DNA of 64,000 nucleotides from an uncultured Candidatus Bathyarchaeia archaeon. GTDB lineage: Archaea; Thermoproteota; Bathyarchaeia; Bathyarchaeales; Bathyarchaeaceae. The stretch lies in assembly GCA_964399485.1 (NCBI GenBank), contig CAYNQS010000006.1, positions 27,656-91,655 of the forward strand. The letters are read 5' to 3'. Below are positions 48,227-63,968 of the stretch, piece after piece. A model generated the notes under the pieces. That model was not told the DNA's origin. It did not search any database and saw only the letters and a program-made list of their open reading frames with translations. Each line of letters begins with the position of its first letter. Position 1 is the first letter of the stretch. A program made the translations under genes and the position numbers.

Positions 48227-48256
48227 TTTTTTAAGGTTAAATTTTAACCAAAAAAA
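48227..48256. repeat. PAL element copy 1 (A/T-flanked variant)
   Basis: TTTTTTAAGGTTAAATTTTAACCAAAAAAA. The core GGTTAAATTTTAACC (48235-48249) is a perfect dyad around a central T. Confidence 0.6.
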
Positions 48257-48386
48257 TGAGTGCGTGTGGAAGTGGACTGGATGAAAGTGTTGAGAACTGC
48301 TACACTCAGGAATGGCGTGTCCTGAATTTTGTGGGGTGTCCTGCTACGCAGTATCAAGTCTGAGGTCAGGAGTGGATACTTGGGCT

Positions 48387-48419
48387 GGTTGGGTTAAATT
48401 TTAGCCCCCAAACCCAAAC
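48387..48419. repeat. PAL element copy 2
   Basis: GGTTGGGTTAAATTTTAGCCCCCAAACCCAAAC. Lies 84 nt downstream of the stop of the 48503-49666 ORF. Confidence 0.85.
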
Positions 48420-48502
48420 TTTCCTTGTGTGCACAATTGCCACGTTGGTTTCATAAAGCGTCGTAGCAGAACTAGCCAAGAGTCCAACTTTTCAATTGGG
48501 GA

Positions 48503-49666
48503 TTAAGATTCTGACCTTTCTCGCTTAATTATTAACTCTCCCTTTAAATATTGTTGGTTATACATTTTCTTGATCCTTAGAATATTCTTGGCCCTCTCTT
48601 CAGTTTCTTTCTCATAGATTTCAATTTCCCCATCAAAAAGACCTAATATGGCTTGTACTTGATCCGGAGAATGCATAAGCGGATTAATCAGAGCAAGAAT
48701 GGTGAATCCTTTTGATTTCAACTCAGAAACAAGTCTTCTTACCCATTTTCTAGTTATTATAGAGCCATGCTGAAGTAAAACGTCCGAAATGATATCTATA
48801 CAAATACGCTTAGCTACACTAGACGTTGATTCCAGCCTTCGAAGGGATTTGGTCAACGCAATATCAATATTTGATAGATTATTAACTCCTTCTAGATTGA
48901 ATACATTGGGTAAGCTCGTATTAGATTTATTTGCACATGGATTGGAAAGAAAAAGATAAAAATTTCCAGGATGTTCTTCGGCTAAAGACCTCCCATTTTC
49001 TGAGTCTAGAGAAAGGTAAAACGTCACTTCGCCTACATTAATTCCTGCTCTCAAAAAATTCTTAATTAGAATTTCCCGTTCATCATTGGAAGGTGAAGTT
49101 ATTATAACGGCGTATCTTTCAGGTAAGCCTCCGAACAAAAAATTGTCTAAATCTTTGTATCCAGTTGAAATACGTTTTGGAGAAATAAATTCATTTTCGT
49201 ATCGAGCTAGGTTTACTTTAATTTGGTTTTTTTCAGAAGGTTCTTCATTTTCAGTAGGTGGGATAAAGGCTGATCCGAAAATGTTAGCTTTTTTAGAAGA
49301 AATTTTACCTACAAGCTTACTCTTTAACTGTTCTATCTCATTCTCAAAAATTTCCCTGTCTCCAGAAGTGGATTCTCTTCCTAAACTATCAATAAGATAA
49401 TCGAAATGAACAGTAATCAATCTATTAGAATACGATTGTGAATTTTCCAAAGGATTAAATGAAATCTTAAGATTAATATCATAATCTTTAAACTCGGTTG
49501 AAGAGTCGTTCTGAAGGCTCATCCGTTTTTTAAATATAAGGAGTCTAGGTTTAATCGAGTCTTTTTGAGCATACTTAAGATTTAAAAAAAAATCCCTCGA
49601 AATATTATATGCTCTTGTTACATGCATGCATGCAGAGTCAATTATAAAGGAGTCAGATATTTTCAC
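48503..49666 (-). CDS. KaiC/RecA-fold ATPase-like protein with degenerate Walker A and unknown N-terminal domain
   Basis: 387 aa. RISTGYKDLDNFLFGGLPERYAVIITSPSNDERE aligns with the KaiC-type TG(I)xxLDxxLGGGxxxGxxxLIxGxxGxGKT, but GxxGxGKT is replaced by SPSNDERE. Visibly AT-rich. Confidence 0.55.
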   Translation of the reverse strand: MKISDSFIIDSACMHVTRAYNISRDFFLNLKYAQKDSIKPRLLIFKKRMSLQNDSSTEFKDYDINLKISFNPLENSQSYSNRLITVHFDYLIDSLGRESTSGDREIFENEIEQLKSKLVGKISSKKANIFGSAFIPPTENEEPSEKNQIKVNLARYENEFISPKRISTGYKDLDNFLFGGLPERYAVIITSPSNDEREILIKNFLRAGINVGEVTFYLSLDSENGRSLAEEHPGNFYLFLSNPCANKSNTSLPNVFNLEGVNNLSNIDIALTKSLRRLESTSSVAKRICIDIISDVLLQHGSIITRKWVRRLVSELKSKGFTILALINPLMHSPDQVQAILGLFDGEIEIYEKETEERAKNILRIKKMYNQQYLKGELIIKRERSES

Positions 49667-49735
49667 TGGGAATCCAACATCCTAAATTTTTAGGAACAAT
49701 AGAATATAAAACTTGTTAGAATTAGATGATTCTTT

Positions 49736-49861
49736 GTGTGCGAGTGCGCGTTTTTTTCTTTGTGGGTGAGAGAGCGGGCGAGCAAGCGGGTGGTCGGTAA
49801 AGCACACACGTACGCGTACGTACACGGATACACGTATACACGCATCCGTGTGAACACGCAT
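49736..49861 (+). repeat. PAL-associated upstream module (copy 1) with alternating purine-pyrimidine tracts
   Basis: Shares the ordered blocks GAGAGAGC, GGT..AAA.GCAC, CACA.TACG..GTACG and ACG...GGGTTTGGG with 62627-62716. Perfect R/Y alternation at 49802-49826 (25 nt) and 49828-49845 (18 nt). Confidence 0.7.
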
Positions 49862-49890
49862 GGGTTTGGGGGTTAAATTTTAGCCCCAAA
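49862..49890. repeat. PAL element copy 3
   Basis: GGGTTTGGGGGTTAAATTTTAGCCCCAAA, between the divergent starts at 49666 (-) and 50037 (+). Confidence 0.9.
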
Positions 49891-50036
49891 TTCACACCCT
49901 TATATATGACAAGCGTATTATGTTAACAAGTAGAATTCTCTTAGTGAATGTTGACAAAAAGCCTATTGCGTTTTGTCGCTTATTTCGGGTATTCTATTAG
50001 AAAAAATATGTAAAAAGAAGGAGGGGGAGTTAGAAT

Positions 50037-50237
50037 ATGTCTATGTCTGGAATTCAATATAAAATGGAGCAAAAGCTTATTCGAAAATTTATGCAAGCAG
50101 GAGCCACTTCTAAGGAGAAAGCTGTAACATTGGAAGAGGCTAGACTTGATATGGAAGAGTATTGTTGGTTAGACTATTTTGCTGGAACTTTTCTTGGCAG
50201 CATAAAGAAGACTAGAGACCATCGATATTACCTCTAG
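50037..50237 (+). CDS. Small hypothetical protein
   Basis: 66-aa ORF preceded by a strong SD-like AAGGAGGGGGAG. No family recognised. Confidence 0.4.
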   Translation: MSMSGIQYKMEQKLIRKFMQAGATSKEKAVTLEEARLDMEEYCWLDYFAGTFLGSIKKTRDHRYYL

Positions 50238-50637
50238 GAGTGCACACATTATACAAAATATTTCAGGGCTTTTGCCGTTTAAGATAGGAAACCGTAAATA
50301 ACATTCCAGTTTCTAGGCGAATATTCTGCACACCTACTAATTCCCACCCTTACTCCCCTAACGTGTTTAATTCTTTTTGGACTTTTTCTATTGTTGGATT
50401 TTTCTCTCTATCATGTCTGCTTAAATGAACCTTTGTCTTAAGTGGAAGCACTTTGTATTCCCATTTTACCAAATTAGAGTAACATCCCCAAACACTAGTA
50501 ATGTTCAATGAAACAGTAAATATCTTTGCTTACTAAATATTTCTCTTTGTGAATGTTTTCAACTATCGCTTATGCTTTCCATTTTAATGTTCTAAATTGC
50601 AGAAGAGTGAAAAGTGAACTTGATAAAACATTGGCGA

Positions 50638-50668
50638 GGCGGGGTTAAATTTTAACCCCAACCCAACC
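50638..50668. repeat. PAL element copy 4
   Basis: GGCGGGGTTAAATTTTAACCCCAACCCAACC. The core 50641-50659 is a perfect 9+1+9 dyad. Flanked by direct repeats GAAGAGTGAAAAGTG (50602-50616) and GAAGAGTGAAAGTG (50685-50698). Confidence 0.9.
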
Positions 50669-50742
50669 ACTGATAGTTGACGCTGAAGAGTGAAAGTGGA
50701 GAATGGCGTCAGCGGCTTACCAACGAAGAGAGGTAAGAAGAC

Positions 50743-51021
50743 TCAAACTTCTGCAGATTTTAGCAATTTTTTCGATAACCCAAGCTCTTTAAATGTTTTG
50801 GTGGTCAATTGTCTAATTCTCTTTTTTAAAGCTTCATTCTCAGGATGAGGATAATATTCTACCTTCTCATTATCTATTAAAATTGCAACTGCAGTAGATT
50901 CACAGTTTCTACACATCCAAAAGCTGGTTCTGTAAGTAATCTCAGAAACCCATTCCATCATTTTGCCACAGTTTTTACATTTCAATAATCTCAGTACCTT
51001 CTCTAATTCTCTATAATCCAT
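50743..51021 (-). CDS. Small Zn-ribbon protein
   Basis: 92 aa. CKNCG...CRNCES Cys pairs. Confidence 0.45.
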   Translation of the reverse strand: MDYRELEKVLRLLKCKNCGKMMEWVSEITYRTSFWMCRNCESTAVAILIDNEKVEYYPHPENEALKKRIRQLTTKTFKELGLSKKLLKSAEV

Positions 51022-51096
51022 TTTCTTTGCCTCACTATGCGCGCACGCAACTATCCATATTTGGTCTTTTCTTAATAATGTTTTATAACGGTTATC

Positions 51097-51121
51097 TTCG
51101 TCGTCGTTCGTCGTCGTTTCG
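51097..51121. repeat. Short tandem repeat (TTCGTCGTCGT x2)
   Basis: TTCGTCGTCGTTCGTCGTCGTTTCG, 9 nt to the left of PAL copy 5. Confidence 0.6.
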
Positions 51122-51127
51122 TTTTTT

Positions 51128-51156
51128 CGTGGGGTTAAATTTTAACCTCAAGCCAA
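51128..51156. repeat. PAL element copy 5
   Basis: CGTGGGGTTAAATTTTAACCTCAAGCCAA, between the start of 50743-51021 (-) and the stop of 51243-51539 (-). Confidence 0.85.
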
Positions 51157-51242
51157 TTTTTTCATTTGAAGGTAGTGTAGGACCTGTGTTCGGGGCATAA
51201 ATACGAAATATAATGGATTGTTAAGACTCTTCAAAAAGTATC

Positions 51243-51539
51243 CTAGGTAGTTTCTAGGGCAGAAAATCCGGTAAGCAGAATTTTGTTTGAGCAATTGTTG
51301 CATCGAATCAATAGACTCTCTAATATATTGTTTCTGACTTTTGGCTCTAAAATAGAGTAAACATCTTCTGTTTCATCGTTAGGCGAAATCTTTGCCCCAC
51401 AGCAAGGACATAAAAAATCACCCTTCCCTTCTAGATCTATTAAACTAATTTTATGCACCAATACCTGCTTCACTTTTCGATCCCCTAGATATGCACCGCT
51501 AATGCCTTCGATAATTAACAAAAAAAGGTTTTTTGTCAA
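51243..51539 (-). CDS. Small Zn-ribbon protein
   Basis: 98 aa. CPCCG...CNNCS Cys pairs. Confidence 0.45.
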   Translation of the reverse strand: MTKNLFLLIIEGISGAYLGDRKVKQVLVHKISLIDLEGKGDFLCPCCGAKISPNDETEDVYSILEPKVRNNILESLLIRCNNCSNKILLTGFSALETT

Positions 51540-51561
51540 GAAAGTTTGACCAAAACTATCG

Positions 51562-51593
51562 TTTGGCTAGTCAAGAAAAATTGACTAAGCAAA
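51562..51593. promoter_or_regulatory. Imperfect inverted repeat (candidate operator) upstream of the 98-aa Zn-ribbon gene
   Basis: TTTGGCTAGTCAA-gaaaaa-TTGACTAAGCAAA (11 of 13 positions complementary), 23-54 nt upstream of the start at 51539. Confidence 0.3.
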
Positions 51594-51755
51594 ATAACAT
51601 TAACAAAATCGAATTTTGGTTAGTTAAATAATTATTTAGCTTTCTTACTGTGGGGGAAAGAAGGGCAGTTTCCTTGTCTTCTGCTCTAGGTTTATTACTT
51701 GCTGGACAAACATAAACTGTTATTTACTTGCTAGGTCAGTATGAAATGAGGGAGT

Positions 51756-52352
51756 TTGGTGAGCAAGGTTATTGTTCCTCCTACATCGGTTGTCCACAAA
51801 ACGGCGGTCATCGGAGAGGGAACACGCGTCTGGAACTTTGTACACGTTAGAGAAAACGCTGAAATAGGCAAGCAATGTGTCCTCGCCGACTACGTTTATG
51901 TGGGCAAAGGAGCAAAAATCGGAAACAACGTAAAGCTTGAGAACCGAGCAACAGTCTATCAGGGAGTAACAATCCAAGACAAAGTTTTTGTTGGTCCTCA
52001 CGTCACCTTCACAAACGACCCTTATCCAAGAAGCTTCAGCACAGACTGGAAAATCCTGCAGACACTCGTGAAAGATGGAGTCTCAATCGGCGCTGGAACA
52101 GTAATACGTTGCGGCGTCACCATAGGAGAATACGCTTTGATAGGCGCAGGCAGCGTAGTAACAGAGGACATACCGCCCCACGCTTTAGCTTACGGAAACC
52201 CAGCTAGAATCAGAGGATTCGTTTGCAGATGCAGCAGAAAACTTGAGACCGAAGAAAAAAGGGAAACCTGCGTTCTGATGAAGTGCCAGTTCTGTAACAA
52301 AGAATACAAGATAGCAGCGGAAGATTATGCCAGACAAAAAAAGGGGGAGTGA
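51756..52352 (+). CDS. Left-handed beta-helix (hexapeptide) sugar N-acetyltransferase, WbpD/WlbB-like, with C-terminal Cys motif
   Basis: 198 aa. Repeated hexapeptide pattern (IGEGTRVWNFVHV, IGKQCVLADYVYV, IGNNVKLENRATV). C-terminal CRCS...CQFC. Confidence 0.8.
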   Translation: MVSKVIVPPTSVVHKTAVIGEGTRVWNFVHVRENAEIGKQCVLADYVYVGKGAKIGNNVKLENRATVYQGVTIQDKVFVGPHVTFTNDPYPRSFSTDWKILQTLVKDGVSIGAGTVIRCGVTIGEYALIGAGSVVTEDIPPHALAYGNPARIRGFVCRCSRKLETEEKRETCVLMKCQFCNKEYKIAAEDYARQKKGE

Positions 52353-53463
52353 AAGACTGCTGAACCGGAAGATTCCGATTGCAAAACCGAACTTTGGAAA
52401 AGAAGAAGAAACTGCAGTGAAGGAGGTTCTGGAATCAGGTATCCTAGCCTCAGGACCGCGAACAAAACAGTTTGAAAAAGAGTTTGCGGAATACATCGGA
52501 GTAAAACACGCTGTTGCCGTGGCTAACGGAACCATAGCCTTAGATGTGGCGCTCAAGTCTCTTAAGTTAGGTCCCGGCGACGAGGTGATAACCTCAGCCT
52601 TTTCTTTCATATCCTCCGGCAACTGCATACTGTTTCAGAACGCAAAGCCTGTCTTCGCCGACATAGACCCCAGAACCTTCAACCTTGACCCCGCAGATGC
52701 TGCCGAGAAGATAACAGCAAAAACCAAGGCAGTAATTCCCATTCACATGTTCGGTCAACCTGCTAACATGGATGCCCTCAAGGAAATCACCGAAGACAAA
52801 GAAATCGCTTTGGTGGAGGATGCTGCCCAAGCCCACGGAACCGAATACAAGGGACAGAAAGCTGGAAGCATAGGAGAAATGGGTTGCTTCAGTTTCTACG
52901 CCACAAAGAACATGACAGCGGGCGAGGGAGGAATGATCACCACGAGCGACGCGGAACTGGCGAGGAAGGCTCGATTACTCATAAATCATGGGCAAAGCCA
53001 GAAGTATCACCATGACACCTTAGGCTACAACTACCGCATAACCGAATTATGCGCTGCCATCGGATCAGTCCAACTCAAGAAACTTGACAAATACAACACT
53101 AAAAGAAGAGAGAACGCGAAGCTTTTGACGCAGGGAATCCGCAAGTTCACGGGTTTAACTGTGCCCTACATAGATAAGGATGTGAAACCTGTCTTCCACC
53201 AGTATGTGGTAAGAGTGGAAGAGAACTACTCCAGAGACAGGGACGAGCTTGCCGATTCTCTAACTGAGAAGGGTGTCGGAGTTGCTGTTCACTACCCCAT
53301 CCCCATTTATAGGCAGCCGCTCTATCTGAAGTTAGGATACAAAGGGACAAAGTGCTCCAATACTGAGGAAGCCTGCAGACGGGTCTTAAGTCTGCCTGTT
53401 CACCCTCTAGTTGACAAAGGAGACATTGAATACATCTTGGCTGTTCTGGAAGAAATTTCTTAG
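52327..53463 (+). CDS. DegT/DnrJ/EryC1/StrS-family PLP-dependent sugar aminotransferase
   Basis: 378 aa. FSFYATKNMTAGEGGMITT (PLP-Lys region) and GDEVITSAFSF. Overlaps the acetyltransferase by 26 nt. Confidence 0.9.
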   Translation: MPDKKRGSERLLNRKIPIAKPNFGKEEETAVKEVLESGILASGPRTKQFEKEFAEYIGVKHAVAVANGTIALDVALKSLKLGPGDEVITSAFSFISSGNCILFQNAKPVFADIDPRTFNLDPADAAEKITAKTKAVIPIHMFGQPANMDALKEITEDKEIALVEDAAQAHGTEYKGQKAGSIGEMGCFSFYATKNMTAGEGGMITTSDAELARKARLLINHGQSQKYHHDTLGYNYRITELCAAIGSVQLKKLDKYNTKRRENAKLLTQGIRKFTGLTVPYIDKDVKPVFHQYVVRVEENYSRDRDELADSLTEKGVGVAVHYPIPIYRQPLYLKLGYKGTKCSNTEEACRRVLSLPVHPLVDKGDIEYILAVLEEIS

Positions 53464-53668
53464 CGACTTCAAATCTTAAAAGCTGCGCACATTTCACCGA
53501 GCAATGCGCTTGAGTAATTGTTGATCTTCTGTGAAAACTGACACTTACTGAAAACTACACGCAAATTGCATCCTTCAAGTCGCTGCTTGAAATGGTGTCT
53601 GTCTCTAAACGTTTGGTAGTAGATGCTATGTTCTATTCGTTGCTCATGTCACTATATCAGACGTCAGT

Positions 53669-54391: not shown

Positions 54392-54862
54392 CTTAATGTT
54401 GTTTCATGGCGATGTAATGTTTTTCTTCCACTTTACCTGTTTCTGGCATTCTGCATATGTTTCTACTACACTAGTAAATTTATCTCCAAGTATAATATTG
54501 CTCCGCTTGGTAGGGAAAAGTATGCCACAACAAAACAGTCTAAAGATTCGCTTCGTTTTCCAGCCGCAGAATTATCTTAAGGAGTCGTTCGTTAGCGACA
54601 GGTTTCACTCTTTTTGTTTTGCATAGATCACCCGTCTCCCAAAGTCTGGAACTTCAGAAGTTAAGCCTCTCTGTTACACGAGGTTCAATCTTCAAGAATT
54701 TACATGATTTTCCTATATTAACGATGCTTTTGACAAATAAATCTGAACAAAAAACAATGTAAAATCATATTTAATCCTTGACAAATGCATAATAAATGGC
54801 TAAAAAGTTGAAAGAAAAACAATTAATAGTCTGAGTGTGTTTATAAGCAGGTTGACCTAACA

Positions 54863-56460: not shown

Positions 56461-56757
56461 TTTGATTCATTTCTTGTCTCATAATTGTAAGCTTGGTTTG
56501 TGGAGCAATAGCCAAATCACTGGGCATAAGATATGGTGTATTTAGCACAAGCATATTGCTTTCGTTTGGGTTTGCTCTAGCCATTTTAAGTGCAAGTATT
56601 CATGTTGCTGAAGTTTTGTGGATATCATAAGTGGGGTTAGTCATTGGAAATTCGAAGATATAGACAAAGGTATGATTTTGATGAAATCACAAAGGAAAGA
56701 AAAACTTCGAAATAAAAGATTGCAAGAGAATCCAGAAAAACATGAGCAACGGAAGAG

Positions 56758-56988: not shown

Positions 56989-57118
56989 TATGAATCCTCC
57001 TTCAGTTTCATCAGTTAGGTATGAAGCGCTTAAATGGCTTCTGAAGTTATTTTCCAGAAAAAAACTCTAGAAAATTGAATCTCAACTATCACAATCGAGA
57101 GAAAACTGTTATTGGCAT

Positions 57119-57137
57119 GGTTTGGGGTTGAATACTA
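57119..57137. repeat. PAL element, degenerate copy (left arm only)
   Basis: GGTTTGGGGTTGAATAC. The first 11 nt are identical to the left arm of the consensus. Overlaps the stop of the 57135-57356 ORF. Confidence 0.5.
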
Positions 57138-57356
57138 GGTCTGGTTTTCTGTTTTCTCGTGGTCTGCGTAGTAGCTGAGTCCCGCCGTTACTCCGGTGGA
57201 TACCGCGAACCACAGAATCATGGCTGTAACGTTTCCCTGAGTGACGATGTATGATAGGGCAATGGAGGCGCCGTGGACAACCGCGAGAATGGCAGAGAGT
57301 TTTGGTTTAAATTCTAATCCCATGACATCACTTCCAGTCACGGTTTGTTTTCCCAC
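57135..57356 (-). CDS. Small two-TM membrane protein (holin-like topology)
   Basis: 73 aa with two hydrophobic helices. Start overlaps the 3' end of the portal-like gene by 19 nt. Confidence 0.4.
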   Translation of the reverse strand: MGKQTVTGSDVMGLEFKPKLSAILAVVHGASIALSYIVTQGNVTAMILWFAVSTGVTAGLSYYADHEKTENQT

Positions 57357-58540
57357 AACTCGAAACCGGCTTTCATCAGGTTTTTCCGCACCTCTTCCGG
57401 TCTCACATATGGGGTTTCGGATGTGGCGCTTATCTCGGCTAGTCTGATTAGGTCTTCTAGTTTGACTTCAGGTTTTTCTGTGCCCCAGTTTAGTCTGCAG
57501 TTTGCCTTCGCTGGGTTGAGGCTTGCCTGCCGTATTAGGGGATTGAAGATTTCTCGTTCGCAGGTTCTTTTTATGAATCGTTGTAGTGCCATTACTTTTC
57601 TTTCCGCGATTTCCAGGGCTGCTCTGGCTGATGCTTCTGTGAAGCCTGGGGTGGTGAACAGTTTTGGCAGTGGGGTTTGTCCGCCCAGGTAGACTTGGTT
57701 GAGGATGTGGTCGATGTAGGCTTCGTAGCGGGCTTTGGGGTCTACGGTGACGGTTTTGATGTCTGCTTCTGGTTTGTTATACACGAATCTTGCGCCTGCT
57801 TTGGGTTTGCTTTTTATGAGTTTCTGGTATTCGGCGAGTTTTTCGTCGCTGGCGCCTGCGAAAATCCACAGTTCGTCTGGTCCAGCGTATTTTTCGAAGA
57901 TTTCGGGCATGATTTTTTCTATGCGGGCTTTCATTTCGAGAAAGCTGATTCTTGTTTCTCCGTTGAAGCTGAGTTCGGTGAGTAGTACTTGAAGGACTCC
58001 TGTTCCGTATGCTGAAAAGTTAACTGGGTTCCAGCGGAAGTGGACGATTTTTTCGGGTTTGAAGGCTGTTTTCGCGTCTCCGTAGCTGTAGTTGTAGCCT
58101 GTGACCTGACCGTACTGGTTTCGTTTTATTGCTGTTGGGTTGTCGAAGCCTGTGAGGGGCAGTATCTTCAGGTTCTGCAGGTGTTCAGGTTCTGTTTTCA
58201 GCCAGAAGCTGTTGCCTGATGCCACGATTTCTCTGGCTGCGATCTGCAGTAGCTCGTCTAGGTTGACTGTTTCGTTGAAGCTGTCTATGATCTGTTTTGC
58301 TTCTTCGGCGCGTGCGTATTCTTCGTTGATTGTGGTGTAGAATCCAGCGCCTACGGCTTGGTCTGCTAGAAAGTCGACGAAGGCTTTGCAGCTGGGGTCT
58401 CTGGTGTAGGCGGTTATTATGTCGTTGAAGGTGACTGTTCGGGTTTCTCCGTAGATTTGTCTCCATGCGGGCAGCAGGACGCCGTTGGTTTGTTGGAGTT
58501 TTCCGTAGAATTCTTTGAGTTTGTTTACGACTACGCTCAA
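57338..58540 (-). CDS. Head-tailed-virus portal-like protein (HK97/Phage_portal-like)
   Basis: 400 aa. IAAREIVASGNSFWL, EKIVHFRWNP..SAYGTGVL and LNQVYLGGQTPLPKLF resemble conserved portal blocks. Judged from recalled motifs only. Confidence 0.5.
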   Translation of the reverse strand: MSVVVNKLKEFYGKLQQTNGVLLPAWRQIYGETRTVTFNDIITAYTRDPSCKAFVDFLADQAVGAGFYTTINEEYARAEEAKQIIDSFNETVNLDELLQIAAREIVASGNSFWLKTEPEHLQNLKILPLTGFDNPTAIKRNQYGQVTGYNYSYGDAKTAFKPEKIVHFRWNPVNFSAYGTGVLQVLLTELSFNGETRISFLEMKARIEKIMPEIFEKYAGPDELWIFAGASDEKLAEYQKLIKSKPKAGARFVYNKPEADIKTVTVDPKARYEAYIDHILNQVYLGGQTPLPKLFTTPGFTEASARAALEIAERKVMALQRFIKRTCEREIFNPLIRQASLNPAKANCRLNWGTEKPEVKLEDLIRLAEISATSETPYVRPEEVRKNLMKAGFELWENKP

Positions 58541-58596
58541 GGTTGTTACGTCCAGCAGTTTTTTGGTGATTTTTGGTCTTAAGTTGGAATGAGCTT

Positions 58597-58962
58597 CTAT
58601 GCTGAGTGCTGTTTAGGTGCCAAATTTTTCTTAGATGGATCGTTGAAGAGGGCTATGATGGCTTGTCCCCTGTCTGTGAGTTTGTAGTATTTTGCGGGGA
58701 GGAACTTGTCTTCTTCGATGTGGTCGACTTCTAGGAGATTTGCTTTGAGGCAGTATCTGAGGTAGCGGTAGATTTTTTTGCTGTCGAAGTGGAGGCTGCT
58801 GTGATAAAGCTGATACACGTTGTTGGCGTTCTTTCTGAACATGTTGAGAAACTTCAGGGTCTCCAGCAAATCGCAGAATTTGGAGCCTTTTTTGGGTCCA
58901 CGCTGCAACAACAGCACCAACCAAAAAGAGGGTGGGTAGAAGGGTATCAGATTTTTTGACAT
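58597..58962 (-). CDS. Winged-helix (PadR/MarR-like) DNA-binding protein
   Basis: 121 aa. KIYRYLRYCLKANLLEVDHIEEDKFLPAKYYKLTDRGQ has a recognition-helix-plus-wing pattern. An alternative overlapping frame (58631-58975) was judged less protein-like. Confidence 0.45.
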   Translation of the reverse strand: MSKNLIPFYPPSFWLVLLLQRGPKKGSKFCDLLETLKFLNMFRKNANNVYQLYHSSLHFDSKKIYRYLRYCLKANLLEVDHIEEDKFLPAKYYKLTDRGQAIIALFNDPSKKNLAPKQHSA

Positions 58963-59156
58963 TTTCGGTCTTCACGAGGCTGCGGCAAAACGGTTATTCT
59001 GCAAGAAACGCCCTATAGGGAAACTGCTTCTTCGGGCAGATATATGACGTGGGCAGGCATGTTTATGTCAAATTTGCTGTTGGATTTGGCTTTTTGGTGT
59101 TGTTTTATTGGGGCTGAAACCGCGTTTTTCTTGGGGAAGAACTGTTTCCATGGGGG

Positions 59157-60038
59157 TTATGGGCGCTTTTTGTGCCAATCTTCGCATACTGTGCCTGAGC
59201 AGTAATCTTTGCGTTCCAGCTCGATTGTTGAGTGTTCGATGTGATGTTTCAGGAGTTTTTCTTTGATTGTCTGTTTTGTTGGTTCAGGACTTTTGAGTGT
59301 CTCATCATCCAGCACCACATGTGCCGTGAATATGTCGGTTTCTCCCTCCAGTGACCAGATGTGTATGTCGTGGACGTCAATTACCCCCTTGATTGAGGTC
59401 AGATCTTTTTTGACGGCTTCGAGGTTGATGTGCTCTGGGACGCCTTGGAGGAGGATGTTGATTGCTTCTCTGAGGTTTTTGGTTACATTGTAGAGGATGA
59501 ACGCTGTTAAACCGATGGTCATCAGTGGGTCGAGGAGATAAACTTTCCAGAAGTAGATGATTACGCCTCCAACCAGAATGCCCCCCCAGCCCAGCACGTC
59601 CTCTAGGAGGTGCCATGAGAGCACTTTCTCGTTTAGGCTCTCACCTTTTTTCAGCAGAAAGAAGCCCAAGCCGTTGAATAGGATGCCGATGACGGCTATG
59701 CCCACCATTCCAAACGCATTTACAGTTTCTGGATTGAAGAGTCTGGGTATGGCTTGGAAGATGATTACGATTGAGCCTCCGATTAGGATAGAGGCTGAGA
59801 AGAGTGCAGAAAAGAGGGAAAGCCTCTGGTAACCGAATGTTCGGCTGGTGTCTGGAGATTTGCGTGCTCCCCGTTCGAAGAGCCATGAGACCAGTAAGGC
59901 GACGCTGTCGCCGAAATCATGCAATGCATCAGAGAGGATTGCTAAACTGTTGGTCCAGAAGCCGCCGACAAGCTCTATGACTGTGAAGGCGACATTCAAG
60001 AACGCGGCGAAACGCACCCTTTTTTCTCGCTCTGGCAT
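59157..60038 (-). CDS. Cation diffusion facilitator (CzcD/ZitB-type) metal efflux transporter
   Basis: 293 aa. Six TM helices, SDALHDFGD (TM2 HD/DD site), HLLEDVLGW (TM5) and a C-terminal cytoplasmic domain. Confidence 0.9.
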   Translation of the reverse strand: MPEREKRVRFAAFLNVAFTVIELVGGFWTNSLAILSDALHDFGDSVALLVSWLFERGARKSPDTSRTFGYQRLSLFSALFSASILIGGSIVIIFQAIPRLFNPETVNAFGMVGIAVIGILFNGLGFFLLKKGESLNEKVLSWHLLEDVLGWGGILVGGVIIYFWKVYLLDPLMTIGLTAFILYNVTKNLREAINILLQGVPEHINLEAVKKDLTSIKGVIDVHDIHIWSLEGETDIFTAHVVLDDETLKSPEPTKQTIKEKLLKHHIEHSTIELERKDYCSGTVCEDWHKKRP

Positions 60039-60114
60039 GGTTTAAGGTAAGTTCTCGACTTGATAAAAACCTATCCAAAAACAGAGAAATGGGGAAATAC
60101 GTTTAGAACTAAAT

Positions 60115-60138
60115 GGGTTTGGGGCTAAATTTTGATTC
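60115..60138. repeat. PAL element copy 6 (right arm degenerate)
   Basis: GGGTTTGGGGCTAAATTTTGATTC. Overlaps the last codons and stop of the MFS gene. Lies 77 nt upstream of the CDF start. Confidence 0.8.
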
Positions 60139-61324
60139 TGTTTCTCAGGAAGAGTATAAGGGATGAGAAGAACAGTGCTGATAGTAACGGCAGTGTTTGC
60201 GACGGTAAGTATTGGATTATGAATCCTCCTGCGATTGGTGTGATGATTTGAGCTATGCTCTGCAGTGAGTTGTTGACGCCCAGTACGGTTGCGGTTTCCT
60301 TTTGTGTGACGCTGTTTGTCAGTTTGCTGGTTAAAATGGGTCTGCTGACTCCTGTGCCGTAGGCGAGGAAGATTAGGGGGATGAAAACGAACATGTAATC
60401 TGTGGAAAGTGCAAGAGTCACCATTGAAATTACCATGGCTACTATCCCCGTTCTCAGCATGCTGCCTTCACCCAAGGCTCGGAGGATGCGGGCAATCAAG
60501 AATGTTTGAATAGTGACTCGCAGTATGCCGATCCATGCCATGTAGAAGCCGACTTGGTCAGCGCCAACGTGGAATTGTGCTTCTGCCAGTAAACTGAAGT
60601 TGGAAATGAACAGGAAGAATCCGGCGTTGAAGATGAAGAACATGATTAAGCTGTTTCTGACGTTGTGGGTTTTCACGAAGCGTTTAGCGTCGTTGACGGG
60701 GATTACTTCGTTGAAGCGAAGAGATAGTTTTTCGGGTTTTTCTGTGATGGTTTCGGGGAGGAAGAGAAGAACTAGGACGATTGAGACTAGGGTTACGGCT
60801 GCGGCGAAGAACATCGGAACTGAGTAGTCGATTCTGGAGAGCACTCCGCCGATGAAGGGACCGAATATCATTCCGGCGCCGAATACGCCGCTGGAGTAGC
60901 CGTAGACTCTGGTTCGGTGGCGGGGTTCGGTGATGTCGCTGATGTATGCTTGGCTGACGGTCATGTTGCTTCCCAGCAATCCGTCGATTAACCGTGCCAC
61001 AACTAACAGGATTGGGGTGGTGGCGAAGCCGAGGAGCAGAAAGCCTGCGAATGTGCTGAGCTGGCTTAGGATGAGGAGGGGTTTTCTTCCGAAGCGGTCG
61101 CTCAGTTTGCCTGTTATTGGGCTGGCGAATAGTTGGCAGAAGCTGAACACGCTGACGATGAGGCCTATTTGTATGGGGGCTAATCCAAGCGATAAGCCTA
61201 GAAACGGTATTAGCGGCATTACCATAATGAAGCCCAGCACTTCCGTGAAGATTATCAGAAATATCACGTAGAGGCGCTTGTCAAATTTGAAGTCGTCTGC
61301 TTCGTGTGCTTCGTTGGTTTTCAA
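60125..61324 (-). CDS. MFS transporter (drug/H+ antiporter, TetA-like 12-TM)
   Basis: 399 aa. GKLSDRFGRKPLL (MFS motif A) and 12 hydrophobic segments. Confidence 0.9.
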   Translation of the reverse strand: MKTNEAHEADDFKFDKRLYVIFLIIFTEVLGFIMVMPLIPFLGLSLGLAPIQIGLIVSVFSFCQLFASPITGKLSDRFGRKPLLILSQLSTFAGFLLLGFATTPILLVVARLIDGLLGSNMTVSQAYISDITEPRHRTRVYGYSSGVFGAGMIFGPFIGGVLSRIDYSVPMFFAAAVTLVSIVLVLLFLPETITEKPEKLSLRFNEVIPVNDAKRFVKTHNVRNSLIMFFIFNAGFFLFISNFSLLAEAQFHVGADQVGFYMAWIGILRVTIQTFLIARILRALGEGSMLRTGIVAMVISMVTLALSTDYMFVFIPLIFLAYGTGVSRPILTSKLTNSVTQKETATVLGVNNSLQSIAQIITPIAGGFIIQYLPSQTLPLLSALFFSSLILFLRNRIKI

Positions 61325-61405
61325 AAAGTTCGACCTCTACATCTATTAGGTGGTTAACTCGTCAAGATTCTGTTCCACTCTCTAAGAGGCGTAAAAACGT
61401 TTCTA

Positions 61406-61419
61406 TTAACTAGTTAACC
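61406..61419. promoter_or_regulatory. Perfect palindrome TTAACTAGTTAA(CC) upstream of the MFS gene (candidate operator)
   Basis: TTAACTAGTTAACC at 61406-61419 and GGTTAAC at 61352-61358. Both share the GGTTAA/TTAACC half-site with the PAL core. Confidence 0.3.
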
Positions 61420-61598
61420 AACAAACTGGAGAATCAATGAAGAATCTCTTTTGTTGGCTAAATTTCTGAGAAATGAACGTAAAGAGTGGATTCCTCGCAT
61501 CGTAATTAAAGAATAAAAGTCATAAGTCATCATTCTCCCATGACCAGATGTTTTATAACCAATTAGTTTTAAGATGTTTTTGAGGTGAGTAAAGGCAA

Positions 61599-61760
61599 AT
61601 GCCCATGCTTTATCTTAAATGCAAAACTTGTGGAATAAAATTCGCATCAGGAATTTCAGTAGATAGAACTAGCTTCAAAACGCTAAGCTTGATTAATAAT
61701 TCGCATACCTGCCCAAAAGGACATACACACGCTTATAACAAGCAAGATTATTCCTTTTAA
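61599..61760 (+). CDS. Small Zn-ribbon protein (53 aa, below the ORF-track cutoff)
   Basis: Manual translation: MPMLYLKCKTCGIKFASGISVDRTSFKTLSLINNSHTCPKGHTHAYNKQDYSF. Preceded by SD-like GAGGTGA (61582-61588). Confidence 0.45.
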   Translation: MPMLYLKCKTCGIKFASGISVDRTSFKTLSLINNSHTCPKGHTHAYNKQDYSF

Positions 61761-61796
61761 TATCGCGACTACTCAGTATTAAAGAGGTGAAGATTT

Positions 61797-62579
61797 ATTC
61801 CTGAGCCTTCTCTAAAAACTCGGAAAGTAGTTTATGAAAGATGGAGAGGTAAATGCGCTTTCTGTGGTATTGACCTACCCTTCGAACAACACCATATTAT
61901 CGCCAAAAATGACTCCCCAGAGTTGATTGATGACCCTGATAATTTGATTTTGTTATGTGCAAATCATCATGGTTTGACACTTAAGAAAAAACCAGATGAA
62001 CGCCCAGCAATTGCAATTGAAGATATTGACGACCTGCAAAAATCTGGTTTTGCCAAAGCAGAAAAAAGAGGTTTTTATTTTTCCATTCCTCAAAATTTTT
62101 CGCTTTCTTTAGGTAGTAATCTTTGCATAGGATGTCCCTATATTCTTATTGTTAATGATAAACCGTTGATTGAGATGTGGCCTCAGAGGACTGCCTTTTA
62201 TGTTGAAGAACCCAAGGTTTACCTTTACATGCGATTCTTTGATGACGAGAATAATTTTATAGGAGGAATGTTTGCGAATCATTGGGCTTCCGTTGTTAAT
62301 GAGGAATGGAAGTTGGATATTCTGGAAAATGAAATCATTGCTAGACACGTAAAGAGACCGATTTTCGTCAAATTTGAGCGCGATAAAAACTTGGTTCGAA
62401 TAACAGGACGGTTCTATTTTGATGGAATAGAAATAACTGCCAAATATGATAGCCTTCTACTAATGACAAATGTGTTCTCAGGAAATATGGCAAGAAATTG
62501 CGAAGTAGCTTTTATTGTGAAAGGAAATCGTGAATCAGCCTCATTAGGATTCTGTGGTCGATTATCTACGAAATTTTAA
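61797..62579 (+). CDS. HNH endonuclease-domain protein with ~200-aa uncharacterised C-terminal domain
   Basis: The frame is open from 61791. Upstream of the ORF-track start it encodes ...WRGKCAFCGIDLPFEQHHIIAKNDSPELIDDPDNLILLCANHHG (C-x2-C...HH...N...H HNH motif). The only plausible initiator behind SD-like GAGGTGA (61784-61790) is an in-frame ATT at 61797. The start is uncertain. Confidence 0.6.
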   Translation: MPEPSLKTRKVVYERWRGKCAFCGIDLPFEQHHIIAKNDSPELIDDPDNLILLCANHHGLTLKKKPDERPAIAIEDIDDLQKSGFAKAEKRGFYFSIPQNFSLSLGSNLCIGCPYILIVNDKPLIEMWPQRTAFYVEEPKVYLYMRFFDDENNFIGGMFANHWASVVNEEWKLDILENEIIARHVKRPIFVKFERDKNLVRITGRFYFDGIEITAKYDSLLLMTNVFSGNMARNCEVAFIVKGNRESASLGFCGRLSTKF

Positions 62580-62626
62580 TGCTCTAATTTTGAACTATGT
62601 GTTTTCTATAATTTGTGTTTTTTCTA

Positions 62627-62716
62627 CATGTGTATTGGGGAGAGAGCAGGTGGGAGCGCGGTGTAAACGCACGGGCACACATACGTACGTGTACGGGCGT
62701 ATGGACACGAGTACGT
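62627..62716 (+). repeat. PAL-associated upstream module (copy 2) with alternating purine-pyrimidine tract
   Basis: Homologous to 49761-49861 (blocks GAGAGAGC, GGTGTAAACGCAC, CACACATACGTACGTGTACGG, ACG..GGGTTTGGG). Perfect R/Y alternation at 62675-62695 (21 nt). Confidence 0.7.
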
Positions 62717-62738
62717 GGGTTTGGGTTTAATTTTAATC
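62717..62738. repeat. PAL element copy 7 (degenerate right arm)
   Basis: GGGTTTGGGTTTAATTTTAATC, between the convergent 3' ends of the HNH gene and the Shedu-like gene. Confidence 0.75.
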
Positions 62739-62788
62739 TCTCTGGCATCGCTCAATACTAAGAATTAAAGCCGTAAATCTCAAGCAAC

Positions 62789-63892
62789 TTATTTTTGCTT
62801 TGAAATAGCATCCAAATATTCTTGATACCGTGATTTGCATTGATTTACTACAGAAAAATAAGACTTGAATTCAATTGAGGGAATCAAGTTGATTGCCTTC
62901 TTTAGATGGGGAGTAATGTTCTTTGCTATTAGGAATCCCTGTTTTTCATCATATTCCGCAAATTCATCAACAAGAACCAAGTAATCCATTAGTTGAGTTA
63001 TGTGTTCCTGTTTAACTTGCATTGAAGGCCTTTTAATCTCAACTACGACCAGTCTTTTTTCGAAATCAGCACAAATAAAGTCAGGACGTCTTTTCCTATA
63101 TTTTTTCCTGTATTCTTTTCCAAGAAAATTTGAAAGTGTTTTGTTAGAACGGAGAAGCCAATACTTATCGTCAAGAATCCAAAGCGCACCTGCAAGTTGG
63201 TTATGTACAGAGTTTTTCCCTTTAATCTCATAGGCATTTTCATTTTGAATGGATGCATCAAAAATTGTTAACTTCCGTAATCTACTGCCAATAATGCTTG
63301 CAACAGAAGTAATTTCCGGCAGAGTGTATTGCTGCATTAGTTGGTGTAGTTTTTTCATTCCTTCAGGCGATTTTTCTTTTCCTAGCTCATTAATCAGTTC
63401 TTTCAAAGTGTTAGCCATTATGTCTTGTTTACCCAATAGAGACCTAAAAGCTGTCTCTACAAAATCGCTAAGAACATCAAAATCTTCAATTTCGACTTCG
63501 CCACGATAAACTTGGTCAAAAGCTTTCAAAATGCTGATTGCCGCTTTAGGGTATTGTTCAACAATCTTCTTTACTTGTGGGTCAATTGCTTCTTCTTTTC
63601 TCAATTGTTTTTCTAAAGCTTTTAGAAGAGGTGGTAATTTTTCCCATTTCAGTTTATTTGCTAAGTAATCTAACACTGGTTTGACTTTTGCTAGTTCCTC
63701 AGGGGTTTTTATTCTAACGGATTGATAATAAAATGGGCTTTGACGGGGTCCAGTAGGGCCTCTAGTCAACCTGTATAATTGTAAAGCTCCTCTGGGATTA
63801 AAAATATCCTTATAAGCTCTCATGTAAAATTTCTGTTTGATGATTGTTTGTCTATCGATTATAGTTTTTTGAGTTGCACCTTGATTTGACAT
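62789..63892 (-). CDS. Shedu-like protein: variable N-terminal region plus C-terminal PD-(D/E)xK nuclease (DUF4263-type)
   Basis: 367 aa. C-terminal ...HNQLAGALWILDDKYWLL...RRPDFICADFEKRLVVVEIKRPSMQV...QLMDY fits the D...(E/V)xK restriction-endonuclease-fold core and the DUF4263 pattern as I recall it. AT-rich. Confidence 0.5.
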   Translation of the reverse strand: MSNQGATQKTIIDRQTIIKQKFYMRAYKDIFNPRGALQLYRLTRGPTGPRQSPFYYQSVRIKTPEELAKVKPVLDYLANKLKWEKLPPLLKALEKQLRKEEAIDPQVKKIVEQYPKAAISILKAFDQVYRGEVEIEDFDVLSDFVETAFRSLLGKQDIMANTLKELINELGKEKSPEGMKKLHQLMQQYTLPEITSVASIIGSRLRKLTIFDASIQNENAYEIKGKNSVHNQLAGALWILDDKYWLLRSNKTLSNFLGKEYRKKYRKRRPDFICADFEKRLVVVEIKRPSMQVKQEHITQLMDYLVLVDEFAEYDEKQGFLIAKNITPHLKKAINLIPSIEFKSYFSVVNQCKSRYQEYLDAISKQK

Positions 63893-63944
63893 AAATAATA
63901 GAATTGTCCGATATACTATATTTGATTTCGTATGAAATTAATTT

Positions 63945-63968
63945 GGGTTTGGGGTTAAAATTTGACCC
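63945..63968. repeat. PAL element copy 8
   Basis: GGGTTTGGGGTTAAAATTTGACCC, 53 nt upstream of the Shedu-like gene start. Confidence 0.85.

Follow-up and report, generated by a model that had tools for sequence, protein, structure and literature searches.

What kind of element is a short palindrome that recurs between the small accessory genes of an archaeal chromosome, and what does it do there? The question is raised by a 64,000-nucleotide stretch of an uncultured Candidatus Bathyarchaeia archaeon (GCA_964399485.1, contig CAYNQS010000006.1, positions 27,656 to 91,655 of the forward strand), here called the window, in which the original prediction listed nine copies of a palindromic element within the last 16 kb and none in the 48-kb core, and proposed that the element is a recombination or boundary site for gene cassettes. 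We first asked whether the repeat is real. A search for GGTTAAATTTTAACC with up to 3 mismatches gave 15 strand-hits at 8 places, against 3.3 expected, a result reached in 0 of 100 shuffles, and all of the hits were between 48.2 and 64 kb. The oriented form GGTTTGGGG-N0-2-TAAAWTTT had 4 exact hits and the dyad GGGGYTAAAWTTTRRCCCC had 5 sites, in both cases against 0.00 expected. The repeat is therefore real, and we refer to it as PAL; its consensus is (GTT)TGGGTTTGGGG-[N0-2]-TTAAAWTTTAA-CC(CCAAACCC).

To delimit the individual copies, we built an HMM from 114 instances in other genomes. The profile found nothing credible in 1-48 kb and recovered eight of the nine listed copies, for which we keep the original numbering. 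PAL1 (48228-48256) is a core-only dyad, TTTTTTAA-GGTTAAATTTTAACC-AAAAAAA, with short arms on both sides, as in an unoccupied site; it was an exact match to the core and scored 9-11 bits over 48232-48249. The same short-armed type occurs in L029, L092 and L195 (L numbers designate the loci or contigs from other assemblies that were used for comparison). PAL2 (48388-48420, minus strand; 36 bits) reads GGGTTAAATTTTAG-CCCCCAAACCCAAAC, and its long arm faces the KaiC-like gene. PAL3 (49860-49891, plus strand; 32 bits) reads TGGGTTTGGGGG-TTAAATTTTAG-CCCCAAA, and PAL4 (50639-50666, minus strand; 23 bits), GGGGTTAAATTTTAACCCC-AACCCAACC, is a perfect 9+1+9 dyad. PAL5 (51129-51160, minus strand; 19 bits over 51129-51151) reads GGGGTTAAATTTTAACC-TCAAGCCAA. 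PAL7 (60114-60138, plus strand; 19 bits), TGGGTTTGGGG-CTAAATTTTGA, overlaps the MFS stop codon and lies 75-105 nt upstream of the CDF start. PAL8 is a decayed copy, TGGGTTTGGG-TTTAATTTTAA-TC, which matched with 3 mismatches and was recovered only weakly (62716-41; 5.7 bits); together with a GC-rich purine-pyrimidine block it occupies 62637-62741 (plus strand), between the 3' ends of the HNH gene and the nuclease gene. Finally, PAL9 (63941-63970, plus strand; 28 bits), TTTGGGTTTGGGG-TTAAAATTTGA-CCC, lies 53 nt upstream of the start of the PD-(D/E)xK nuclease gene and is also present in the independent Logan contig L001.

The remaining listed sites are not copies. The one at 57119-57137 is an arm-like GGTTTGGGG that lacks the AT core; it was not found by the HMM, and it aligns to an intergenic AACCCCTAAACC that is conserved in 12 relatives. 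Of three weaker candidates, 61448-61469 is a conserved remnant upstream of the MFS gene, and those at 56631 and 51614 were not detected. The statement that PAL marks almost every unit boundary was also too strong, since it marks 8 of about 20 gene boundaries, with none inside 51.7-57 kb or 57.1-60 kb, and the idea of one site per gene unit does not hold. Moreover, the proposed 16-kb accessory region is a mosaic. Relatives conserve 51.2/51.7-53.46, 56.7-60.08 and 60.12-61.48 kb, and only 45.9-51.15, 53.46-56.7 and 61.5-64+ kb are window-specific. The first of these window-specific segments (45866-51150), which holds PAL1-5, showed no DNA homology in any of 20 backbone relatives and has a GC content of 0.36, against 0.45-0.50; the low-GC segment at 61480-64000 holds PAL8 and PAL9. 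As to the cargo, the KaiC-like, CDF, MFS and HNH assignments were supported, whereas 'Shedu-like' and 'portal' were not supported by Pfam or PADLOC.

We then asked whether PAL is specific to this genome. It is not: a strict pattern hit 117+ loci, about 95 of them in Bathyarchaeia/Thermoproteota MAGs from about 55 assemblies, a conservation that could not be seen from the window alone. Copies cluster, with 47% of 107 seeded 8-kb loci holding two or more at 0.5-3 kb spacing, and the neighbouring genes are extremely diverse small accessory enzymes and transporters. These observations bear on the possibility that PAL is a selfish REP/MITE-like palindrome that spreads by itself into intergenic DNA and, as a fragile non-B-DNA site, merely provokes rearrangements nearby. 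In line with this view, PAL with its low-complexity tail is present or absent as a unit at orthologous places (L193 lacks it where L133 has it at 95% identity, and L125-type relatives lack it where L144-type relatives have it), there is slight within-genome homogeneity, and the flanks are Z-DNA-, triplex- and G4-prone low-complexity runs. REP and MITE families, however, are lineage-specific, whereas this core is the same in about 55 species-level assemblies. PAL has no GTAG head, no RAYT/TnpA or other Y1 family was found among its neighbours, and PAL itself shows neither a flanking duplication nor copies of uniform length, its arms and tails being variable. Nor does this model explain why the long arms stay with the cargo, or why one module is bounded by PAL on both sides in three contexts (see below). 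We consider it unlikely.

We next examined whether PAL could be a transcription signal. PAL is about 90% intergenic but showed no preference for gap type: PAL-containing gaps were convergent, tandem and divergent in 29, 65 and 31 cases out of 125, against 109, 275 and 122 in the background. The distance to the next start had a median of 125-177 nt. Importantly, CDF, Zn92 and the nuclease gene have their own TATA boxes closer to the start, that of CDF being conserved, and a separate hairpin+T6-7 terminator sits just before PAL in at least 7 loci; there was no enrichment of T or A runs at PAL. PAL is therefore neither the promoter nor the terminator, in agreement with the original prediction that it is not simply either. 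A search of the whole window against Rfam gave no hit at gathering score, and only a spurious mir-297 hit (E 0.28) in the purine-pyrimidine block. It remains possible, although we regard it as doubtful, that PAL is primarily a transcriptional boundary, a palindromic BRE/TATA-like core with G/C clamps, perhaps a protein roadblock or a bidirectional weak terminator, that travels with accessory genes and is shuffled by ordinary homologous or microhomology-mediated recombination between copies of about 30 bp, as are the PeSL motifs of T4-like phages (PMC2839356, PMC4122927). The core does resemble this organism's promoters of the form (G)AAA-N-TTTAAA; in tandem gaps PAL lies nearer the upstream stop than the next start (98 against 177 nt; 41 of 65, p=0.046); and it often overlaps stop codons and fills a 30-nt convergent gap in L064. 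By inspection, however, G arms are not a feature of the window's core-gene promoters, and, as described below, breakpoints concentrate within about 8 nt of the centre rather than anywhere in the repeat.

The decisive evidence is comparative. The KaiC-like gene (48503-49666; Pfam KaiC, E=4.5e-12) lies in a module (48391-49885, minus strand) bounded by the inverted long arms of PAL2, at its 3' boundary, and PAL3, at its 5' boundary; the two arms form a 26-nt inverted repeat, 88% matched. The module recurs at 94.2% identity over 1500 nt in L213, L214 and L215, three independent assemblies showing the same context, and at 93.7% over 1342 nt in L216. Each time PALs lie at both ends, the flanking genes are unrelated, and homology ends in the PAL cores. 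A GC-rich block of alternating purine-pyrimidine and low-complexity sequence attached to the long arm of PAL3 (49740-49860, plus strand) travels with the module in L213-215 and is shortened to about 35 nt in L216; the block beside PAL8 resembles it, and similar blocks flank PAL in many genomes. In L216, module-side homology to the window ends at 2346 and backbone-side homology to L218 (92% identity) starts at 2324, so that the two blocks overlap only in the PAL at 2318-2349. The cores at the two ends of the module are direct repeats, CTAAAATTTAA twice in the window and TTAAATTTTAA/TTAAATTTTAG in L216. This is, however, the only module actually seen in several contexts. A KaiC-like homologue at 86% identity (L217) has no PAL nearby, and neither do homologues of the 62789-63892 nuclease at 57-62% identity, of which two were looked up. 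Furthermore, module identity (92-94%) is not clearly higher than backbone identity between close relatives (up to 92%), so recent transfer is not demonstrated.

Other junctions showed a similar behavior. After the conserved 3' UTR and terminator of a glycogen-debranching (GDE) gene, an orthologous PAL is followed by three different cargoes in L216, L218 and L221, whereas there is no PAL in L222 or L219/220. Upstream of CDF, an orthologous PAL is present in 10 relatives with four or more different neighbours on the far side: the CDF-side arm and tail are conserved, and the other side is MFS, small low-GC ORFs, a surface-protein gene or another ORF, depending on the relative. L138 carries a 2.3-kb PAL-bounded insertion here, arranged as MFS-PAL-[2 ORFs]-PAL-[1 ORF]-PAL-CDF, where the window has 87 nt. 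The presence of PAL at this junction is patchy among sister lineages. Homology between the window and L129 stops at the edge of PAL5, at ...aaaaaattggctt|gaGGTTAAAATTTAACCCC, which is also the edge of the window-specific segment. Conversely, several variable junctions lack PAL, namely those at 53.46, 56.7 and 45.9 kb and the L125-type MFS-x292-CDF arrangement.

Together, these results support the original prediction that the palindrome is a recombination or boundary site for gene cassettes: the motif is absent next to core genes in the window, rearrangement breakpoints in related genomes fall on PAL copies, and PAL is not the terminal repeat of an annotated IS. We propose, with moderate confidence and on metagenome assemblies only, that PAL is the joining site at which self-contained modules, each carrying one or a few genes with their own promoter and terminator, are inserted into, removed from and exchanged between Bathyarchaeia chromosomes. 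In this view, the long, telomere-like (TTTGGG)n arms belong to the cargo and the short GG/CC arms to the recipient site, and strand exchange takes place inside the nearly symmetric AT core, such that an inserted module ends up between two hybrid PALs that share the core as a direct repeat, and successive insertions build arrays. Most PALs do have one long and one short arm, and forms with two long arms and with none also exist, as expected for cargo/context, cargo/cargo and empty sites. The most likely chemistry seems to be conservative site-specific recombination by an enzyme encoded elsewhere in the genome and acting in trans, but this enzyme, its chemistry and a circular intermediate are all inferred. 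No recombinase or transposase was found in the window or recurrently beside PAL in 107 loci, so the catalyst is hypothetical, and the same end products could come from transposition with an 11-bp target duplication or from homologous recombination between roughly 30-bp repeats.

The transposition alternative deserves mention because the G/C arms could be the terminal inverted repeats of cargo-carrying, non-autonomous transposons, with ends reading 5'-CCCCCAAACCC...GGGTTTGGGG-3', inserted into AT-rich palindromic targets by a DDE-type transposase acting in trans that duplicates the core as a target-site duplication. The inverted arms of the KaiC-like module, the identical 11-bp core at its two ends in the window, and outer arms that differ with context are all consistent with this reading, and TTAA|CCCC...GGGG|TTAA is somewhat reminiscent of piggyBac/IS1380-type ends; for whole modules, a MITE-like organization is accordingly ambiguous. 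Yet arm length varies, as (TTTGGG)n of 1-5 units, without defined termini, many units have a long arm at one end only, and no transposase was seen in 945 neighbouring ORFs. In addition, the recipient sites already carry short GG/CC arms and are thus PAL-like rather than a plain AT target. This explanation therefore seems improbable.

Whether PAL is a classical integron attC site was also tested. As in integrons, including archaeal integrons (PMC9668308), arrays of single-gene units carry varied small accessory enzymes with a shared site at the unit boundaries that often overlaps the stop codon, and GTTAAAT / ATTTAAC fits the GTTRRRY core, although this is a low-information match. PAL, however, is about 31 nt long with an unbroken dyad, and not an imperfect hairpin of 55-140 nt with extrahelical bases. 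Single-stranded folds reached only -2.8 to -7.6 kcal/mol, mostly within the shuffle range, the copies at 60114 and 62716 did not fold at all, and there was no compensation at position +-5, so that a structured (hairpin) site is not supported. The arrays have no common orientation: arm orientation of neighbouring sites was concordant in 27 and discordant in 33 cases, and that of the centre base was only weakly concordant (37:23, p=0.09). Genes lie on both strands, and cassettes have their own promoters. No IntI was found in the 64-kb window or among the families recurring in 140 PAL-adjacent ORFs, although one could be encoded elsewhere, whole genomes not having been scanned. On length, fold, orientation and promoters, membership in the attC family is not supported and appears very unlikely, as does the possibility that PAL is the operator of one regulator; a dyad could bind a homodimer, but an operator would not sit in convergent gaps at the background rate or mark synteny breakpoints.

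How, then, does PAL compare with other known systems? REP/BIME elements are likewise interspersed intergenic palindromes, often between convergent genes and accompanied by mosaic flanking motifs, but they are species-specific, tied to RAYT transposases, and do not bound exchangeable gene modules. The PeSL motifs also flank small ORFs, in hyperplastic regions, and mark indel and replacement breakpoints between close relatives; they are, however, true early promoters plus terminators that work through homologous recombination, whereas PAL adds no needed promoter or terminator and occurs in cellular chromosomes. The layout of PAL fits that of simple tyrosine-recombinase core sites of the loxP/FRT type, in which two inverted arms of about 12-13 bp surround a 7-8 bp overlap where the crossover occurs: its arms are GGGTTTGGGGTT/AACCCCAAACCC, its overlap is the 7-bp AAAWTTT, and the homology breakpoints lie within about 8 nt of the centre. 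A symmetric spacer would be expected to abolish directionality at such sites, and, because the core of PAL is almost symmetric, modules could enter in either orientation. PAL differs in that there are tens of dispersed copies per genome rather than one or two, one arm is often degenerate, and no recombinase is known. Lastly, in the pdif modules of Acinetobacter plasmids (PMC6449649, PMC13141974), many copies of a short, near-palindromic recombination site also flank discrete accessory-gene modules that occur in different contexts and in both orientations; homology ends at the sites, and no recombinase sits next to them because the host Xer enzymes act in trans. PAL has no dif sequence or 11-6-11 layout, and has TAA-N3-TTA instead of the archaeal dif hallmark TAA-N6-8-TTA (PMC11840125); it is present in 8 copies in 16 kb rather than, like dif itself, as a single copy near the replication terminus, its arms are G-runs of variable length, and it is chromosomal, archaeal and class-wide.

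The 64-kb window is a chromosomal piece of a Bathyarchaeia genome; it carries CTP synthase, HisRS, CysRS, LeuA/aconitase and other core genes, and its relatives are Bathyarchaeia MAGs. The palindrome described in the original prediction is real. A search with GGTTAAATTTTAACC, allowing up to 3 mismatches, hit 8 places, all between 48.2 and 64 kb, against 3.3 strand-hits expected, and the longer oriented and dyad forms, with expectations of 0.00 to 0.02, gave 4-6 sites. A profile built from 114 copies found in other genomes recovered the copies at 48388-48420 (PAL2), 49860-49891 (PAL3), 50639-50666 (PAL4), 51129-51151 (PAL5), 60114-60138 (PAL7) and 63941-63970 (PAL9). The core-only copy at 48232-48249 (PAL1) and the decayed copy at 62716-62741 (PAL8) were recovered more weakly, and nothing credible was found in the first 48 kb. 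The site at 57119, also listed in the original prediction, is not a copy, as it has no AT core and aligns to an intergenic AACCCCTAAACC that is conserved in twelve relatives. Of the weaker candidates proposed, that at 61448 is a conserved remnant upstream of the MFS gene, whereas those at 56631 and 51614 were not detected.

To define the element, we aligned 106 copies from other genomes. The positions that our search pattern did not fix are still conserved, namely GTT before TGGG and A-A-Y-C-C after TAAAWTTT. The element (PAL) is therefore (GTT)TGGGTTTGGGG-[0-2 nt]-TTAAAWTTTAA-[0-1 nt]-CC(CCAAACCC). Dyad symmetry is strong out to about +-8 nt and then decays. Most copies have one long (TTTGGG)n-type arm and one short arm, but copies with two long arms and with none also occur. 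As single-stranded DNA, the copies in the window fold weakly (-2.8 to -7.6 kcal/mol, mostly within the shuffle range), and two good copies do not fold at all. The inserted base at +-6 covaries (G:C or A:T; 0.60 against 0.42 expected, p<0.0005), but +-5 does not, and the covariation at +-6 looks like genome-specific subtypes, with a within-genome similarity of 0.671 against 0.618 between genomes (p<0.0005). Thus, a hairpin or single-stranded site is not supported, and what is conserved is the double-strand sequence of arm plus core. Searches against Rfam, at the gathering threshold for the whole window and at E<=1 for 47.5-64 kb, gave nothing apart from a spurious miRNA hit in a purine-pyrimidine block.

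A subset of copies carries striking low-complexity flanks, including GAGAG or CTCTC runs, (CCAA)n, (GTGACTGA)n, (CAACTACTA)n and long alternating purine-pyrimidine GC-rich blocks, all of which we infer to be prone to non-B DNA structures. The blocks expand and contract between relatives. In one MAG (MFD00032.bin.1.38), a 2.2-kb segment is duplicated at 90% identity (locus L102, 1317-3539, and locus L104, 954-3178). It lies to the left of a roughly 300-nt PAL module in one copy and to the right in the other, and the PAL modules there are built of (GTGACTGA)n, a purine-pyrimidine block, (TTTGGG)n, PAL, (CT)n and (CAACTACTA)n. The low-complexity blocks may be by-products of repeated breakage and repair at these sites, or structural helpers, but this is speculation.

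About 95 of the hits lie in contigs labelled Bathyarchaeia, Bathyarchaeota or Thermoproteota, from about 55 assemblies, the sources being peat, soil, marine and estuarine sediment, and hot springs. By inspection, most of the 16 bacterial-labelled hits look like chance; two, L046 ('Sulfotelmatobacter') and L052 ('Romboutsia'), carry canonical PALs and may be misbinned. Contigs with canonical PALs and the typical flanks also sit in MAGs labelled as other lineages (L044, L081 and L117, from JACTUC01, 'Methanomethyliaceae'; L091, 'Promethearchaeota'; L070, 'Hermod'; L105, 'Hadesarchaea'). These are probably misbinned or mislabelled Bathyarchaeia contigs, so PAL could serve as a binning check. Scans of the viral contigs in IMG/VR returned 6 and 8 hits, all chance matches or bacterial hairpin/T-run terminators, and BLAST searches of PLSDB and INPHARED with the consensus gave no real match among plasmids and phages. 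Full-text literature searches for the motif and for Bathyarchaeia palindromes found nothing relevant.

Copies cluster: the 107 seeded 8-kb loci hold 71 further copies, 47% of the loci hold two or more, and spacing is mostly 0.5-3 kb. The neighboring ORFs are extraordinarily diverse, the largest similarity cluster among 945 ORFs having 7 members. They are dominated by small accessory enzymes and transporters such as methyltransferases, nitroreductases, SnoaL-like proteins, metallo-beta-lactamase-fold proteins, GT2 and AsnC. No integrase or transposase family recurs among the PAL neighbors, and no recombinase was found in the window or recurrently next to PAL in these loci. Nor was a tRNA found in the window or beside the PALs examined.

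About 90% of copies are intergenic. Gaps containing PAL are convergent, tandem and divergent in the ratio 29:65:31, which matches the ratio for all gaps in the same loci, 109:275:122. Distances to the next start codon are long, with a median of 125-177 nt, and in tandem gaps PAL lies somewhat nearer the upstream stop (98 against 177 nt; p=0.046). PAL often overlaps a stop codon, as with MFS in the window and in the relatives L131, L138 and L144, and in Ca. Bathyarchaeum tardum it fills a 30-nt convergent gap. The neighboring genes have their own signals. In the window (60040-60080) and in all CDF relatives (L125-L168), the CDF transporter gene has a strongly conserved upstream box, GGATAGGTTTTTATCAA, at -40 to -24, which is kept down to about 75% gene identity and is probably the promoter plus an operator for a metal regulator; PAL, in contrast, sits at -75 to -105 and only in some relatives. 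A hairpin plus T6-7 terminator (GGAG...CTCCCCC-TTTTTTT) lies just before PAL in at least seven loci. This recurring terminator-like element (GGAG-loop-CTCC, then CGCAACTCCCCC-T6-7) was seen immediately before PAL in L020, L041, L042, L106, L133, L178, L138 (2266-2300) and, downstream of a glycogen-debranching gene, L216/L218/L221, and reads as a hairpin plus oligo-T on the strand of the incoming gene. There is no T-run enrichment around PAL overall. We therefore rejected the promoter reading, on the distances, the separate TATA boxes of the genes and the presence of PAL in convergent gaps, as well as the terminator reading, on the absence of T-run enrichment and the adjacent separate terminators. 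Between the start of the p144 gene and PAL1 (48060-48232) lie an AT-rich palindrome (ATATAATATATCGTGATATATAATATAT) and a 7-bp hairpin followed by T6 just before PAL1; this could be a small transcript of about 100 nt, for which Rfam finds nothing.

We next compared the window with related loci. A metagenome scan with the CDF protein returned 80 loci, about 20 of which share a backbone with the window, MFS-CDF-PadR-p400-p73-wHTH ... DegT-Hexa ... c183-c319, at 80-89% DNA identity, with variable low-GC segments between these blocks. The segments specific to the window are 45.9-51.15 kb (PAL1-5), 53.46-56.7 kb (no PAL) and 61.5-64+ kb (PAL8 and PAL9). So the 16-kb accessory region of the original prediction is a mosaic, and PAL marks some but not all variable junctions. 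The protein encoded at 62789-63892, which had been called Shedu-like, has no Shedu/DUF4263 match and only a weak C-terminal PD-(D/E)xK (Cas4/NucS-type) nuclease signal, and the supposed portal protein at 57338-58540 has only E~0.05 portal hints and belongs to the conserved backbone of relatives. The 66-aa ORF at 50037-50237 belongs to a conserved small protein family in Bathyarchaeia (45-65% identity; L011, L035, L054, L169, L181), and in two distant relatives it lies just downstream of the CDF gene. In the core part of the window, a conserved element of about 55-65 nt (TAATAACAGAAGATTGTTGAAAACTA...AAACCAAGCAA) occurs twice, upstream of two genes (~6494-6550, + strand, and ~12926-13090, - strand), and also matches a contig of a relative (L219, ~10088-10158) at 82-87% identity; it may be a small RNA or a regulatory site. 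No Orc1/Cdc6 gene was found at the GC-skew minimum near 18 kb, and a replication origin there was rejected.

Homology with the relative L129 stops at the outer edge of PAL5. Upstream of CDF, ten relatives carry the orthologous PAL, and in all of them the CDF-side arm (CCCCAAACCC-gtttaYgcc) and its T/G-rich tail are conserved, whereas the DNA on the other side is MFS, small low-GC ORFs, a surface-protein gene or another ORF, depending on the relative. L138 reads MFS-stop/PAL - two small ORFs - PAL - one ORF - PAL - CDF where the window has 87 nt; the MFS-side site keeps the short arm, and the CDF-side site gains a long G arm. On a CDF tree, the presence of PAL is patchy among sister lineages. 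The roughly 90 nt upstream of the MFS gene (window ~61330-61420) is the 3' remnant of a MarR-like gene that is intact only in L138 (231-686). Other relatives and the window keep only the tail, which shows that replacement events cut into this gene. A test for enrichment of breakpoints gave an odds ratio of 6.4, but the data are pseudo-replicated and we did not use it.

The decisive case is that of the KaiC-like gene, which lies between PAL2 and PAL3, the long arms of which form a 26-nt inverted repeat facing the gene. Close homologues of this gene lie in different places in other genomes. In L213, L214 and L215, DNA homology to the window runs for 1500 nt at 94.2% identity, and exactly from PAL to PAL (L215 138-1637, with PALs at 135-164 and 1624-1647). 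These are three independent assemblies showing the same context, so a chimera is unlikely. In L216, homology to the window runs for 1342 nt at 93.7% identity and again ends in a PAL. The flanking genes are unrelated in the three contexts: p144 and p66 in the window, a small ORF and x252/PKD proteins in L213-215, and x316 and glycogen-debranching enzyme in L216. At base level, the long arms (core-CCCCCAAACCCA ... TTTGGGTTTGGGG-core) and the GC-rich block travel with the gene, whereas the outer short arms differ with context. The switch occurs within about 8 nt of the dyad centre, and the cores at the two ends of the module are direct repeats. However, all comparisons rest on metagenome assemblies, and this was the only module caught in several contexts. 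An 86%-identical homologue in L217 has no PAL, and two looked-up homologues of the 62789-63892 nuclease, used to test a second module, also lacked PAL. Moreover, module identity (92-94%) is not clearly above backbone identity between close relatives, and we make no claim of recent transfer.

A recipient site was seen in several states. The glycogen-debranching (GDE) gene next to the module in L216 has close relatives, in all of which about 250 nt of 3' UTR plus a hairpin/T-run terminator are conserved. In L216, L218 and L221, this conserved stretch is followed by a PAL at the same place (caaGGG-CTAAAATTTAA..., caaGGG-TTAAAAATTAA... and caaGGA-TCAAAATTTAA..., respectively), beyond which lie three unrelated sequences, each starting with its own C arm. 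L222 and L219/220 have no PAL and have other neighbors; L214 and L219 are not one contig. In L216, homology to L218 (backbone, 92% identity) begins at 2324, and homology to the window (module) ends at 2346. The two blocks overlap only in the PAL at 2318-2349.

These observations fit insertion of a module at a PAL with exchange inside the AT core. A recipient site with short arms and a donor site with two long arms would yield two hybrid sites, each with one long arm facing the cargo and a shared core, and repeated insertion would give arrays. The layout is that of simple tyrosine-recombinase core sites, with inverted arms of about 12 bp around a 7-bp overlap, AAAWTTT, in which only the central base breaks the symmetry. 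Symmetric spacers in lox and FRT sites probably abolish directionality, and this would explain the mixed orientation of genes and of arms; array directionality inferred from the centre base was not significant. That PAL is the joining site of mobile modules, as the original prediction of a cassette boundary or recombination site implied, seems to us somewhat more likely than not. We favor conservative site-specific recombination by an enzyme encoded elsewhere in the genome, but this specific chemistry is only tentative; no catalyst has been identified. The same products could arise from transposition of arm-bounded elements with an 11-bp target duplication, or from homologous recombination between the repeats, as proposed for PeSL motifs in T4-like phages (PMC2839356).

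It also seems possible, although less likely than not, that Bathyarchaeia as a class possess their own gene-cassette system, a functional counterpart of integrons and pdif modules. In this view, circularisable modules of one to three genes would carry a double-armed PAL and would be inserted at short-armed PALs in the chromosome by a conserved chromosomally encoded recombinase, in either orientation because of the near-symmetric core. Bathyarchaeia are among the most abundant archaea in sediments and soils, and almost none are cultured; such a system would be a major route of accessory-gene flow in this lineage. A joining site shared across the class and bounding exchangeable gene modules would reveal a new cassette-type mechanism of horizontal gene transfer in Archaea, one that does not use integron machinery, and would point to a recombinase with a roughly 31-bp, lox-like target, of interest for genetic tools in archaea. 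It would also give a sequence handle for mapping the flexible genome of any Bathyarchaeia MAG and for flagging misbinned contigs, and would make module gain and loss directly testable in existing metagenomic read sets.

We class PAL with the sites that bound mobile gene modules; as far as the searchable literature shows, these would be the first such modules with this site and the first reported for Bathyarchaeia. In logic, the closest are the pdif modules of Acinetobacter plasmids (PMC6449649), in which many short near-palindromic sites flank modules, orientation is mixed, and the host recombinase acts in trans. Integron cassettes, including archaeal integrons (PMC9668308), are also close. 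PAL, however, is not an attC, as the length and fold are wrong, orientation is mixed and the cassettes have promoters, and no IntI was found in the window or among the families recurring beside PAL. It is not a dif site, since it lacks the TAA-N6-8-TTA hallmark (PMC11840125) and is present in many copies. It is not a REP, as there is no GTAG head and no RAYT was found among the neighbors examined, and it is class-wide. Finally, PAL itself is not a MITE, as it has no fixed ends and no target duplication.
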